The notes beneath the pieces were generated by a model. That model did no database searches. It worked only from the letters and a program-made list of their open reading frames with translations, and was not told the DNA's origin. The translations under genes were made by a program, and so were the position numbers. This document shows positions 21,626-31,536 of a stretch of DNA of 32,000 nt, piece by piece. The stretch spans positions 30,001-62,000 of the forward strand of contig JAFGBS010000002.1 in NCBI GenBank assembly GCA_016933055.1. Reading direction: 5' to 3'. The stretch's first letter is position 1. Each line of letters begins with the position of its first letter. The DNA comes from Promethearchaeota archaeon (GTDB taxonomy: Archaea; Asgardarchaeota; Lokiarchaeia; Sigyniarchaeales; Promethearchaeaceae).

Positions 21626-21651
21626 ATTTTTATTTTTTATTTTTATTCTTT
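21626..21651 (+). terminator. T-rich tract, candidate archaeal intrinsic terminator of the r-protein operon
   Basis: An almost uninterrupted T-rich run begins 2 nt after the uL15 stop and overlaps the 3' end of the convergent gene. Confidence 0.55.
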
Positions 21652-22820
21652 AACGCTAATTCTGTAAAACCCGCTGCTTGCATTAAACTTCCTTCAATTT
21701 CTACTTCTTTAGCTACTCTCGAGGTATCAAGCAAAACTTTTTGGTGTTTGAAATATACGGAAGAATACAAAGCTCCATATGCTTTTCCTCCACCTAAATA
21801 CACTAAAGTTCGATAAATAAAGTTACCTGAGACCCCATCCGGTGCCAAAAGAAAATTACCCTTTTTCACGGCGTTCTCAATTAAAATTTGATCATTTGAG
21901 ATTTGGTATTTAGTAGGCGAGTCATTTTCGAAATATGTTACTAAAAGCTCGGCAGTTTCTAATGTTTCATCCACATATTTGTTTCTACCTATATCTCCTA
22001 ATCTTCCACCACTCATCACGGATAAATGGGGTTCAATTCCTAATTCTGTTAATATGAGTGCAGCATTATTCAAAATGTATTTCTTTTTTTCAAAATTTGT
22101 TGCTTCATCGATTCCTACGGGAGCAAATAGAAATTGCAAATTATCAGAAGTTTCCATTAACGCGATCCGTGAAATTCGTAAGACATCATATATATCAGTC
22201 CGTAAGGATGTTAACATCAGCTTTAAAAACCCCAGAAAACGGGCTGCTGATATTGCACCCCGTATTCCTGAAAATTGATGAATCCATTTTTCTAATTTGG
22301 GATTCTTCACGATATCTGCTATAGGTTTAGAAGTAACTAATTCGACGATTAAATCAAAAAACACTATGCTGAGAATTATCCGCTCGGGATGATAGCATAC
22401 TATTTTATATACTCCACCAGTTTTACGAATTTCTTCCGTTTTTTCATACACTATACGGATAATCTGGTAAATATGCTCGAGATATTCGTTAACCTTTACT
22501 ATAGTTTCTCCTTTAAGTGCATCCGCTGGTTTCAGAGAATCATCGGTTTCAAATTCCAGTTCTCCTTGTGTAAGCGAAATATTTCCTATTTCCCTTTCTA
22601 TTTTAAGATCATACCCCTTAATCTCAGAGTCTTTCTTATTATTTGGATAGGAATCATATCCACCAACCAGAACAATAAGATTCTTATATTTTTTCGCAAA
22701 TGTCTCGCAAACAGTTTGTATCTTCTGGTTTTGATCCTTCTCTTCTCCTAAACCTATTAATATATTAAATTGATGTCCTTTGATATTTTGTTCTATTATA
22801 TCTAATATGTTTTTTTTCAA
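21630..22820 (-). CDS. MtxX / methanogenesis marker protein 4-like protein (phosphotransacetylase-like fold), enlarged
   Basis: APVGIDE, MSGGRLGDIGR, ILIENA, APDGVSGNFIYRTL, GGGKAYGA and DTSR motifs; TTG start with GGAGG upstream. Confidence 0.8.
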   Translation of the reverse strand: MKKNILDIIEQNIKGHQFNILIGLGEEKDQNQKIQTVCETFAKKYKNLIVLVGGYDSYPNNKKDSEIKGYDLKIEREIGNISLTQGELEFETDDSLKPADALKGETIVKVNEYLEHIYQIIRIVYEKTEEIRKTGGVYKIVCYHPERIILSIVFFDLIVELVTSKPIADIVKNPKLEKWIHQFSGIRGAISAARFLGFLKLMLTSLRTDIYDVLRISRIALMETSDNLQFLFAPVGIDEATNFEKKKYILNNAALILTELGIEPHLSVMSGGRLGDIGRNKYVDETLETAELLVTYFENDSPTKYQISNDQILIENAVKKGNFLLAPDGVSGNFIYRTLVYLGGGKAYGALYSSVYFKHQKVLLDTSRVAKEVEIEGSLMQAAGFTELALKNKNKK

Positions 22821-22840: not shown

Positions 22841-23938
22841 CTAAGTTATTATAAATATTAAGATTAGAAATTGAATAATGTTATATAACGCATGGGCAGT
22901 GATTGCACTAATAAGATTCTTTCTCCAAATAAAGAGAAATCCTAGTATCAGCGATAAACTGAAATAAGGAAAGAAAGTAAAAAAGAGTAATGGTGGGGAG
23001 ATCACAAAGGGGTAAATGTGAAAGGCAGAAAAATAAATTGCAGTTATTACTAGTGCCATTAGTTTTCCCACTTGAGGATTTTTAAAGGAATTTTGAAAAC
23101 CTTTTTGAGTAAATCCTCGAAATAATACTTCTTCAGAGGGAGCTATCGAAAAAATCATAAGTAAGGAGTATATTATAATAAGCGGAATAGTGCTTGGGAA
23201 AGCCACTGAGATATTTTCAACATCTGTGTTTAGTATTTCTTGAGCCGGGATACCAAAAATAAATTGGGTAAGGTATGCAGAGAGCCATTGAACTCCATAA
23301 ACTAAACCCGTCATTATTAAAGAAAATCCAGCTCCAATTCCAATTTCCTTGAACCACTCGGAAGTAGTTAACCCAAATGGTATGCCTATTGATCTCCAGC
23401 GTTCTTTTTTAGATGCATTTTGAGGGAAAAATGGTGCTGTAAATAAAAAGGGAATTAGCAGAAAAACTAGTTGTGTACTGAATTCTATTATAGTAATGGC
23501 TAAAATATGTTCATCTAAAAATGCATTAACATCAAGATTGGTAATGTCCTCAATAACCAAAACCATATACACAAGTAAAATCACCACTGATAGTATCAAT
23601 TTAGCCAATACTGCCAATATGGGAACACCCAGAGCCGCACCCCACTTCCAAGGTTTTCGAGCTCGATAAGAGGGATGATATTTCGGTATCGATTGGGGAT
23701 CATATTCTTGCTTGTGAGGAGGAGGAGGTCTGTTTGGTGTAACGCTATACAAGCTATCGATCTCTTCAGAGGTTAAAGGAATATTCATCCATTCTTCTAT
23801 TTTCTCTTTAGGTATAAATTTTATCAAGTATGTCCCACAAGACATGCAATATCTCATATCTGAGCTCCACTCTAACGGTTTACCACAACCTGGGCAATAT
23901 CTTAAAATCGCATGTTTTGAATTGGATGAATCGTTCAT
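22841..23938 (-). CDS. CPBP (Abi/Rce1-like CAAX protease) intramembrane protease with N-terminal zinc ribbon
   Basis: EExxxR (SEEVLFRG), FxxxH (FSAFH) and HxxxN (HALYN); N-terminal CPGC...CMSC. Confidence 0.9.
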   Translation of the reverse strand: MNDSSNSKHAILRYCPGCGKPLEWSSDMRYCMSCGTYLIKFIPKEKIEEWMNIPLTSEEIDSLYSVTPNRPPPPHKQEYDPQSIPKYHPSYRARKPWKWGAALGVPILAVLAKLILSVVILLVYMVLVIEDITNLDVNAFLDEHILAITIIEFSTQLVFLLIPFLFTAPFFPQNASKKERWRSIGIPFGLTTSEWFKEIGIGAGFSLIMTGLVYGVQWLSAYLTQFIFGIPAQEILNTDVENISVAFPSTIPLIIIYSLLMIFSIAPSEEVLFRGFTQKGFQNSFKNPQVGKLMALVITAIYFSAFHIYPFVISPPLLFFTFFPYFSLSLILGFLFIWRKNLISAITAHALYNIIQFLILIFIIT

Positions 23939-23992: not shown

Positions 23993-24436
23993 TTATGTCG
24001 TTTTATCAGAGAAAATAATGGGAATTTCTTTGACTTGAGTTTTCTTTTGAAGAATATACGCTTTCATCTGAACGGTTTGGTTCCCAAATATCACCCAGAC
24101 AAGATAGGGATATAATTTTCCTATGTGTTGAATCGTGACTCTATCATATGTTGAAACATATGCATCATCTGGGTGAGAATGGAAAATTCCAATGAGAAGT
24201 AATTTTTTTTTGTCGTAGGCAATACACTGATGGAACAATTCCATTTCGTCGATCTGAAATTCAACTGATGAATGAATGACATTATGGAGTTCAACTACTG
24301 CTTCTGCGTAATAAGTATCATCGTCTGAACTATCTTTTCTTCCGAACAGAGCAGCACAAGATTCTTGGGGATAGTGAGACCTTGAAATGTGCATAAGTTT
24401 CATTTGCAAATCACGGGAAATATTTAATTGTCCCAT
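23993..24436 (-). CDS. JAMM/MPN+ metalloprotease (desampylase/Mov34-like)
   Basis: N-terminal catalytic Glu (PQESC) and HSHP-DDAYV-S-TY-D zinc motif. Confidence 0.9.
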   Translation of the reverse strand: MGQLNISRDLQMKLMHISRSHYPQESCAALFGRKDSSDDDTYYAEAVVELHNVIHSSVEFQIDEMELFHQCIAYDKKKLLLIGIFHSHPDDAYVSTYDRVTIQHIGKLYPYLVWVIFGNQTVQMKAYILQKKTQVKEIPIIFSDKTT

Positions 24437-24539
24437 TAAGTAATCAACACGCTAGATTTTTGAATAGGAATTATGGTAATTTAATTAGGAATTTTGCGAA
24501 TTTATATTGCAATATCAAATAGGGTAGGGAGAGAGTAAT

Positions 24540-25700
24540 GTGACACCACGGATGGATTCTCTGATCAAATCCACAATACTGAAATTTACGGCTACAACTC
24601 CACAAGTAAGTCTAGAGAAAATTGCCGCACTGCTTGATATGAAGCTGGAAATACTCATCTTTACTTTAGAACGCATGATTTATACAGGATATATCCAAGG
24701 AACCATTGACAACGCTAATCAGATGTTCATATCGACCACCGTTCAATCTTCTCACCAAACTGAACCACCTCGTTCATTACCGGGGCCTACAAATCAATAT
24801 AACAATGGTCAAACAGAATTCATTAAAGTTAAAACTAGTGAAGTGTCACAAGAAGATTTTATTAAAATGGAAATCCAGCTCGGATATTTAGGAAGTCATG
24901 TGCGTTTCACCGTGAAGATAACTAATAAAAGTGATTTTCCCATCACCGAAATTGAACTAACATTGGAATTTTCAAAACCTCTTGAAGTGTTTCGTGTATC
25001 TCCAAAACTCGAATATGTCAAACATGGGAAGGGAATAGTTGCACTATTTCCCTTAATACAAGAAAAACGCAGTTTTGAAAGCACATTTTACTTAAATCCA
25101 GATACTCTCGGAAAGGGAAAGATTGGGGGACAACTCAAATTTGTAAATTATAAGGACTATGTAAGATTATTTAAAATTGAGGATCTGGAATATAATTTAA
25201 CAATTCCCGAAATACAGCCCATGCAAATACCTACTGAACTGATTGAACAATTTAATGAGTCTGATCAAATGAAAAGGGACATTCGTTCCTACGGATTACC
25301 AGAAAAACTACTTCCGACAACCGCATTTAATCACATCACTCAAATTATACGATCCAAAAATTTCCAACTACTCACCAAAGTAGATGAAGAAGACCGAAAA
25401 ATCGCCTGGTTTTTTGGGGTAACGGAAGAAATGCATTAAGAAATTTTGGTCGTAGGTCAAATTGTTAATAATAAAATCGAGTTTTTTGCATCAAGCACCA
25501 ACGAACAGATCCTATCCGCATTATTGACGGCATTTTCACTGGACTTAAAAAGAAGGATCTTGATATCGAATGTAGTTCGAAGTGAAAAGGAAATATTTGA
25601 GTTGTTTTGCGCAGAATGCGGGGCTGTTTTGCCCTACTTTCCCAAACCAGGGGAATCAATCCAGTGTAAATATTGTAACACGCCGAATCTAGTTCGATAA
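24540..25700 (+). pseudogene. PCI/wHTH + Ig-like appendage + platform + Zn-ribbon protein, interrupted by one in-frame TAA at 25437-25439
   Basis: ORFs 24540-25439 and 25446-25700 are in the same frame and read ...GVTEEMH*EILVVGQI.... Domain calls are by pattern recognition only. The stop may be a real mutation or a base-calling error. Confidence 0.6.
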
Positions 25701-27571: not shown

Positions 27572-28210
27572 ATGAATATTATTAAAAAATTATCAAATGA
27601 AATGCATGCAAGCAAAACGATAAAACCCAGTTTTAAATTAGTTCATCTTCTCCTTAGTCTTGTCATTTTTCAACAGGAGACTCAAGGTATTGGTCGTTAT
27701 CGATTGGAAAACGAATTATGTCTTTCAGAGGGAAAGGTCAGATCCCTCTTAAAGCACATGAAACAAAAACATTTGATAGAAGTGGACAACAAATTAAATG
27801 TACATGTCCTAACTGAAAAAGGATATTCCACTTTAATTGATATCACAAAGATCCTAACTCCTCCGAAAGAACCCAATTTTGAGATTACTCAAATAGTGAT
27901 CGGAGATTTTGTCAGATACAGTATTGTGCATAATGGTAGATCACGGTTAAAAACAGGATTAGAACAAAGGGATGAAGCCATAAAAATTGGGGGATCGGGA
28001 GCTACTTGTTTAATCATGAAAAATGGAGAATTCTTTTTTCCACCTACTCCCACTATGCAAAATACCTCAATTCCTGTTGCTATTGACCCTAATAATTTGA
28101 ATTATCCATTTTCTGAGTCAGATGTTTTGGTCTTAGGAACCGGAAAGTCACAATATCTTGCCAATTTAGCTGCTATCGCAGCAGCCTTAAGTTTAGCCCA
28201 CCATGTATAG
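27572..28210 (+). CDS. DUF4443/PH0730-like winged-helix protein
   Basis: IGRYRLENELCLSEGKVRSLL (HTH), VLTEKG wing, and GLEQRDEAIKIGGSGA C-terminal signature. Confidence 0.75.
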   Translation: MNIIKKLSNEMHASKTIKPSFKLVHLLLSLVIFQQETQGIGRYRLENELCLSEGKVRSLLKHMKQKHLIEVDNKLNVHVLTEKGYSTLIDITKILTPPKEPNFEITQIVIGDFVRYSIVHNGRSRLKTGLEQRDEAIKIGGSGATCLIMKNGEFFFPPTPTMQNTSIPVAIDPNNLNYPFSESDVLVLGTGKSQYLANLAAIAAALSLAHHV

Positions 28211-30730: not shown

Positions 30731-30774
30731 AATCTGCTGTGTATTTTTATTTTTCATTCTCCTTATTAGCTCTT

Positions 30775-31536
30775 ATGAAAGTTATTTTTCATGAAGATTT
30801 TTATAATGTTTATGAATCCGATCCCGCTGCGGCGGCTGGTAGATTAGAGCCTATTGTGCGAAAGATACTTGATGATCCATTCTATCAGCTCATAGAACCA
30901 GTACCTGCAAAGAAGGAAGATATTTTACGAGTCCATACTGAACGACATTTTCAACGGATTCAATCAGATGCCTATGTATTTCTCATGGCGATGTTGGCAG
31001 CTGGTGGAGCGATTCAAGCCGCAGATATTGCATATACGGAAAAGACAGCAACATTTGGATTAATTCGCCCTCCAGGACATCATGCAAGCCGAGATTCGTG
31101 TTGGGGTTTTTGTTTTTTTAATAATATTGCAGTCAGTCTGTTATATTTAATGCAGAAATATCCTATTCATTCTGCATTTATTCTTGATTTTGATCTTCAC
31201 ACCGGAGATGGAAATATTAATATTTTGGAGGGATATCGGGATGTCTACATTCTTAATCCCTATTCCCATGATGAAATCAAATATGTCCGAGAAATTGAGG
31301 AAAAATTACTTAGTTTAAAGAATGTTGACATTTTTATTTGCAGTGCTGGGTTTGATAATGCTCAAGGGGATTGGGGAGGAGTATTATCTACGGAATCTTA
31401 CCATAAAATTGGTATGCTACTTAAGAAATACAGCCAGAAACTGTGTGAAGGTCGTCGTTATGCTTTACTAGAAGGAGGATATAACTATTCATTAATGCCA
31501 ACCAACTTTGATGGTTTCTGTAAGGGATTTGGATGA
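30775..31536 (+). CDS. Histone deacetylase family (HDAC/AcuC-like) zinc deacetylase
   Basis: RPPGHHA, WGFCFFNN, DFDLHTGDG, SAGFD and LLEGGY motifs. ATG 30775 is preferred over GTG 30739. Confidence 0.93.
   Translation: MKVIFHEDFYNVYESDPAAAAGRLEPIVRKILDDPFYQLIEPVPAKKEDILRVHTERHFQRIQSDAYVFLMAMLAAGGAIQAADIAYTEKTATFGLIRPPGHHASRDSCWGFCFFNNIAVSLLYLMQKYPIHSAFILDFDLHTGDGNINILEGYRDVYILNPYSHDEIKYVREIEEKLLSLKNVDIFICSAGFDNAQGDWGGVLSTESYHKIGMLLKKYSQKLCEGRRYALLEGGYNYSLMPTNFDGFCKGFG

Follow-up and report, generated by a model that had tools for sequence, protein, structure and literature searches.

A predicted adaptin-type ear protein with an N-terminal winged helix and a C-terminal zinc ribbon, encoded beside a JAMM protease gene in a Promethearchaeota archaeon

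Results and Discussion

Gene structure and reading frame

The window analysed here, a 32,000-nucleotide stretch of a Promethearchaeota archaeon contig, contains a 299-codon open reading frame with a GTG start (24540-25439, + strand), followed in the same frame by an 84-codon open reading frame ending at 25700. Read in one frame, 24540-25697 gives 386 codons with a single TAA as the sole internal stop, and all of the motifs quoted in a first-pass annotation of this DNA are found in the joined product (Table 1). Searching 5.8 billion proteins gave 14 homologues (302–397 residues, 44–69% identical), one of them named as from a Promethearchaeota archaeon. Twelve are full-length (348–397 residues) and span 89–100% of the joined product unbroken, the other two being shorter at the N-terminal end, and all 14 read through the stop position without a break. 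Since full-length homologues exist and the genome to which the window belongs (3.76 Mb, 36 contigs, 91% complete) has a single copy, we treat the two reading frames as one gene and not two, as the first-pass annotation had done by reading through the stop.

The column of the homologue alignment in which the stop falls is a variable loop residue (Y, F, T, I, L or N), and the nearest locus, L001, has the codon TTT in place of TAA. Homologues begin with MDxLIK. In this gene the ATG at 24552 lies at the equivalent point and may be the true start instead of the GTG at 24540. A tRNA scan of the window found none. The in-frame stop also carries a practical warning, in that automatic annotation called only a 295-residue fragment here.

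Table 1. Features of the gene and of two neighbouring genes in the window. Residues refer to the 386-codon product, and domain boundaries are predicted.
Feature	Residues	Position	Strand	Remarks
Whole gene, winged helix-hinge-ear-zinc ribbon protein		24540..25700	+	Start GTG 24540 or ATG 24552; terminal TAA 25698-25700
PCI-type winged helix	1-66	24540..24737	+	PF01399, E 6e-7, 30 bits against a cut-off of 22
Disordered hinge, Pro/Ser/Thr/Gln-rich	67-92	24738..24815	+	pLDDT < 50 at 68-79 and 82-91
Ig-like β-sandwich lobe	93-221	24816..25202	+	Strands E94-E219, pLDDT ~90
α/β platform lobe	222-344	25203..25571	+	Best match AP-4 β in whole and domain models
In-frame TAA	codon 300	25437..25439	+	Loop between third and fourth platform strands
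C4 zinc ribbon, CxxC-x15-CxxC	352-386	25593..25697	+	C357, C360, C376 and C379 invariant
Stand-alone MPN+ (JAMM) metalloprotease gene, divergent neighbour		23993..24436	-	PF14464, E 6e-14
PH0730-like wHTH + DUF4443 gene		27572..28210	+	PF14544, E 3e-18; PDB 2p8t, E 2e-7

Predicted domain architecture

An AlphaFold2 model of the whole protein, built with 15 sequences (pLDDT 82.5), predicts in order a three-helix winged helix, a disordered stretch (68-91), an all-β region (94-219), an α/β region (225-342) and a pair of hairpins bearing the CxxC-x15-CxxC motif. The winged helix (helices 3-17, 25-31 and 36-48, with a hairpin) agrees with the PCI assignment of the first-pass annotation, as the match to PF01399 (residues 7-65, profile positions 24-82 of 84) lies above the Pfam threshold and is shared by 12 of 44 relatives. 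Its closest structures, by VIA-align, are the winged helices of DDRGK1 and UFL1 (Z 10.8, rmsd 1.7 over 65 residues), and a family profile compared with PDB sequences matched those of DDRGK1, CSN1 and Rpn6 (E 0.007–0.17). The helical-repeat arm found in lid, CSN and eIF3 subunits is absent, the protein beginning a few residues before the winged helix. Orthologues in the sister family are without the winged helix, and any PCI-MPN logic is therefore lineage-specific. The hinge that follows, of about 27 residues, varies in length and sequence among homologues.

Foldseek comparison of the joined protein with the PDB placed COPI and adaptor appendages first: the best 16 matches are all to gamma-COP, beta-COP, beta2-adaptin or alpha-adaptin appendages (E 3e-11 to 6e-7), with BBS7 next (E 6e-5) alongside generic Ig proteins. 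A VIA-align search covering 48,161 chains gave the AP-4 β platform as top match of the whole model (Z 12.1, rmsd 2.8 over 117 residues), while the sandwich lobe matched the gamma2-adaptin ear (Z 11.0, rmsd 3.0 over 113 residues) and the GGA GAE domain (Z 10.4). Taken alone the sandwich is nonspecific, pilin and adhesin Ig domains tying with adaptin ears at Z 10–11, and the case for an ear in these models therefore rests on the platform and on the two-lobe layout. The Sec23/24-like ArnB also reached Z 10.5, but its 105 aligned residues are scattered over 106-359 and it ranks below the ears.

As the question turns on the platform, this lobe was modelled separately from 44 sequences, using the residues equivalent to 219-386 of an intact orthologue (pLDDT 94.9, pTM 0.88). 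The top four VIA-align matches of this model are AP-4 β (Z 11.2), AP-2 β2 (11.0), AP-2 α (10.7) and gamma-COP (9.3), with rmsd 2.5–2.8 over 105–116 residues; unrelated folds appear from Z 8.8 down, generic helix-grip and TBP-like proteins lie at Z 6–8, and the best four Foldseek matches are likewise appendages. The predicted structures are thus those of an Ig sandwich followed by an α/β platform, as the first-pass annotation had proposed, and the platform matches adaptin and COPI ears where generic Ig or CARDB domains without a TBP-like platform might have been the closest relatives. The two lobes superpose on solved ears singly; over both together the rmsd is 12–14 Å, so that their mutual orientation is not reproduced.

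In sequence the resemblance is slight, with 9–16% identity to AP and COPI ears. None of the Pfam adaptin or coatomer appendage models matches at gathering score, PF02883 (the adaptin ear sandwich) giving 14–19 bits against a cut-off of 27.6. This same model is nevertheless the commonest Pfam match in the family, found below threshold in 17 of 44 members (best E 0.001) and in three long relatives; no Pfam family for the platform was listed. Searches of PDB sequences with the single protein and with the family profile found winged-helix and zinc-ribbon matches only, and no adaptin. Judged from the models, the relation to adaptins is one of fold, with a faint echo in sequence. Trp290, invariant in 45 relatives, is a candidate motif-pocket residue.

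The C-terminal zinc ribbon claimed in the first-pass annotation also holds, with two CxxC knuckles whose four presumed zinc-binding cysteines are conserved in 45 of 45 sequences. Its hairpins are predicted with a pLDDT of ~95 in the domain model, in which the ribbon probably packs on the platform. The family profile compared with PDB sequences suggests an eS27-like ribbon (E 0.004), and Pfam zinc-ribbon matches are weak.

Gene neighbourhood

The divergent neighbour, which shares the intergenic region 24437-24551 with the ear gene, encodes a JAMM protein whose motif residues (E, HSHP, S and D) do not vary among 22 orthologues and which weakly matches the haloarchaeal desampylase model NF041370. 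In all four window-lineage loci (L001, L003, L021 and L022), as in the sister-family cluster, it adjoins the ear gene. In the window lineage the order is a ribosomal operon, an MtxX-like gene, a CPBP protease gene, the divergent JAMM and ear genes, a GluRS gene on the strand opposite to the ear, and DUF4443, the last lying 2–4 kb off. These flanks are quite unlike those of the sister family of the same order, where 37 of 41 genomes have an ear orthologue and nearly all of about 20 loci show a proteasome β gene converging on JAMM and DUF4443 genes that share one direction, with the ear gene diverging from DUF4443; one locus is without these neighbours. A more distant relative, P0028, has DUF4443 divergent from the ear amid quite different flanks and with no JAMM gene. 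DUF4443 is the most constant neighbour, adjoining the ear or lying ~2–4 kb away in nearly all loci examined.

The converging proteasome β-type paralogue scores 181 bits with TIGR03634 against a cut-off of 224, below equivalog level, and is seen in one Lokiarchaeial family (L007:3380-4021, L036, L042, L044, L046, L050, L051 and L055). The genome of the window itself has five proteasome-family genes, none within the window. The proteasome β, JAMM and DUF4443 genes are retained, with no ear gene anywhere, in four genomes of a single genus and in one more genome, which indicates that the ear is dispensable for its neighbours. DUF4443 is a single-copy gene in 91 of 121 genomes of the phylum and also occurs in Sulfolobus acidocaldarius; its C-terminal domain has invariant R, D, G, A and D residues, and a literature search found no paper on it. 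Outside this order it does not lie beside a JAMM, proteasome or ear gene, even by profile search. As the arrangement is conserved only within one order and a few metagenomic lineages, shared ancestry explains part of it. A complex prediction of the intact orthologue P0005 (with its alignment) against the window JAMM protein scored 0.00 and returned no answer, a result that speaks neither for nor against an interaction.

Three further genes in the window merit description. At 21630-22820 (-) lies a 396-residue homologue of methanogenesis marker 4 (Mmp4/MtxX; TIGR03270, E 9e-45, below cut-off), in which the match is to the C-terminal half only; the context is non-methanogenic and the synteny is kept in L001 and L003. 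Adjoining the JAMM gene, 22841-23938 (-) encodes an Rce1-like intramembrane protease of CPBP type that has a zinc ribbon at its N-terminus and is conserved in L001 and L003 and not in the sister family. A histone-deacetylase-family gene (30739-31536, +) directly follows thrS; it encodes 265 residues for a 298-position model, and its Pfam match is split in two stretches.

The wider family

Searched with a profile, 1.84 billion representatives yielded 314 proteins at E ≤ 0.001, in which the ear module is C-terminal in polypeptides of ~300 to 4,900 residues. Arrays of DDRGK/UFL1-like winged helices, or TPR repeats, occur in some relatives. Many are membrane proteins in which the ectodomain is of Kelch, Big or LVIVD type and the ear is preceded by a hydrophobic segment. 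The zinc ribbon is present in some relatives and absent in others. Those members that are named are from Lokiarchaeia, Hodarchaeota and Asgardarchaeia, their annotations reading hypothetical or 'PCI domain-containing'. Eight giant surface-type proteins (P0100, P0102, P0109, P0110, P0113, P0116, P0125 and P0128) have a C-terminal ear without a zinc ribbon, followed at the very end by an acidic tail common to them, in variants of S-L-L/M ... E-x-G-E-T-E/D-Q. Two distant ear and zinc-ribbon proteins, L060:4799-7614 (a TPR form) and L062:6001-13685 (with multiple winged helices), are encoded next to or near Band_7/SPFH genes. A scan of genome contigs with a narrow family alignment found two loci only, both in Promethearchaeota MAGs; the broad alignment offered no usable conserved stretch for such a scan.

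Relation to known systems

The large subunits of AP complexes and the β and γ subunits of COPI (PDB 1pzd, 1e42, 1w80, 2mj7 and 9qpq chain H) have the same succession of sandwich and platform, preceded by a flexible hinge, and their ears are the best structural matches both for the lobe pair and for the platform alone. They differ from the present protein in what surrounds the ear: ahead of the hinge there is no HEAT or α-solenoid trunk here, the sole upstream domain being a winged helix of 65 residues, and a zinc ribbon is added at the C-terminus. The GAE and platform modules of the BBSome (BBS2/7/9) share the layout, as the first-pass annotation had suggested, with BBS7 appearing in both searches (Z 10.5 by VIA-align) and BBS9 for the platform (Z 7.8). 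These matches are clearly weaker than those to adaptin and COPI ears, and the β-propeller and coiled coil are missing here.

Ears in archaea have been described before. In Asgard genomes, Eme et al. (2023) reported the Pfam domains of the ear sandwich and platform (PMC10307638). The 'adaptin appendage regions' (IG + TBP) of Makarova et al. (2024) come from Methanobacteriales loci (that paper's clade label), Halobacteriales and Asgard archaea, and include a zinc-ribbon form (Meth_adaptin loci) and Asgard proteins with Vps28-C, longin, TPR or HTH/PCI parts (PMC11188069). The statement of the first-pass annotation that appendage-like domains occur in Asgard archaea is therefore sound; the archaeal ear class is published and common in these genomes. 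The IG + TBP-like module is common to those proteins and ours, and a zinc ribbon and HTH/PCI are among the parts already known to be fused to it. In contrast to them, Vps28-C and the steadiness box are absent from the protein and 44 relatives, longin is absent from the orthogroup, and the gene is not in an ESCRT locus, having DUF4443, JAMM and proteasome β genes as its constant neighbours; a JAMM, DUF4443 or proteasome link is not mentioned by Makarova et al. (PMC11188069). The suggestion that this combination may be undescribed thus stands in part: ears with zinc ribbons or HTH/PCI parts are already in print, while no description of the exact domain order and neighbourhood was found in the literature searched, which is not proof of absence. 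What is new is the domain order (winged helix, hinge, ear, zinc ribbon) and the conserved place beside DUF4443, JAMM and, in the sister family, proteasome β genes.

A third comparison is with the PCI/MPN pairs of the 26S lid, the COP9 signalosome and eIF3, and with DDRGK1/UFL1. The winged helix passes the Pfam PCI threshold, the MPN+ gene lies head to head with the ear gene, and a proteasome subunit gene is nearby in the sister family. Unlike the subunits of those complexes, however, the protein has the winged-helix part only and most orthologues are without even this, while the MPN protein is a minimal JAMM of 147 residues that lacks the C-terminal helices holding lid subunits together.

Putative function and alternative explanations

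The reading we favour, with a probability of about 0.6, is that this gene of a Lokiarchaeia-type Asgard archaeon encodes a soluble, non-enzymatic docking hub of ~380 residues in five parts, which would act as an accessory adaptor for a ubiquitin-like-modifier/proteasome module. Partner proteins or short peptide motifs would bind to the ear and zinc ribbon, and the flexibly hinged winged helix would link the hub to a further winged-helix or PCI-type protein; by analogy with other ears, docking is probably the function. As some relatives keep the proteasome β, JAMM and DUF4443 genes without the ear, the ear would not be an obligatory part of a complex, and since it stays beside DUF4443 and yet is accessory, co-regulation from a shared promoter or service to the module fits better. 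The ear would then be an accessory adaptor co-regulated with or serving the ubiquitin-like-modifier/proteasome module, rather than a vesicle coat component. A more ambitious version, in which the ear protein, the MPN+ JAMM, the proteasome β paralogue and the PH0730-like protein form a small lid-like protein-turnover module, with the ear and zinc ribbon selecting modified substrates and the PCI-type winged helix docking them, seems to us quite unlikely.

The evidence for the ear fold comes throughout from predicted models, and the identity of fold with coat-adaptor ears that they suggest would also suit an adaptor in trafficking or linked to ESCRT, in which the ear recruits cargo or accessory factors to membrane-remodelling machinery. 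Archaeal ears have been linked to ESCRT and SPFH loci (PMC11188069), and the SPFH link is echoed by the distant relatives L060 and L062; other ear and zinc-ribbon relatives form the cytoplasmic tail of membrane proteins. The orthogroup, however, has no membrane anchor, Vps28-C, steadiness box or longin, about 30 loci have no ESCRT, SPFH, GTPase or coat gene beside the ear, and no ESCRT, Vps4 or coat-type Pfam family was found among the called genes of L001-L008 and L059. Nothing in this analysis shows a role in membrane traffic, and we regard such an adaptor as rather improbable. Less probable again is a DNA- or RNA-binding regulator with the ear as sensor, to which we attach very little weight: while a winged helix with a zinc ribbon is a common make-up of archaeal regulators and the ribbon weakly resembles those of eS27 and TFIIB type, the winged helix belongs with those of PCI and DDRGK1, a type that mediates contacts between proteins, and it is missing from most orthologues, which retain the ear and ribbon. 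The docking hub remains our preferred reading for the family.

Compatible with this reading, and concerning only the state of the window copy, is the possibility that the TAA is a real nonsense mutation in a recently inactivated or split gene, that ear function is lost in the population, and that the product is a fragment of 295–299 residues that lacks the long helix, two strands of the platform and the zinc ribbon; we put this at slightly below an even chance. A Logan assembly of the probable source sample has the identical 1161 bases including the TAA, on a contig of 139,710 bases at ~20x word depth, so that the stop is present in two assemblies of that sample. The only other run with any of the gene, from an unrelated hot-spring metagenome, has parts of it and none over the TAA site, and two metatranscriptome runs of the source study contain no part of the stretch. 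Since TAA ends 22 of the 35 long open reading frames in the window, this gene among them, nothing points to a changed genetic code, and a recoding of TAA, the main terminator here, is unlikely; as TAA is a normal stop codon, the window copy has probably been truncated or was inactivated recently. A recent change from TAY to TAA, one base away from the tyrosine codon of several homologues, explains the stop most economically; it may have reached fixation in the sampled population or simply be frequent there. The predicted position of the stop inside the platform sheet and the outright loss of the ear gene in relatives that kept its neighbours, showing that loss is tolerated, both argue for inactivation. 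Against it, the 86 codons 3′ of the stop have no further defect and show higher conservation, with 80% identity to the nearest locus, L001, where the part 5′ of the stop has 64%, contigs hide minority variants and the TAA is known from assembled contigs of one sample, and a TTG two codons 3′ of the stop, at 25446, could restart translation. Read-through or such a restart is a conceivable alternative to truncation; without read-through the product would stop halfway through the platform, after the winged helix and the sandwich.

Implications

Ear domains are interaction hubs of eukaryotic vesicle coats, and archaeal forms therefore bear on the origin of the trafficking machinery. The present orthogroup places a compact soluble form, with winged helix, hinge, ear and zinc ribbon, amid genes for a JAMM isopeptidase, a proteasome β paralogue and a conserved wHTH protein, and not amid ESCRT or coat genes. 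As the protein is small and confidently predicted, its intact orthologues are easy targets for structural and partner studies. If the lid-like module were real, ears would have served ubiquitin-like-modifier/proteasome systems before vesicle coats existed; if the link to the neighbouring genes is functional, the archaeal relatives of eukaryotes would have used ears for purposes other than membrane traffic.
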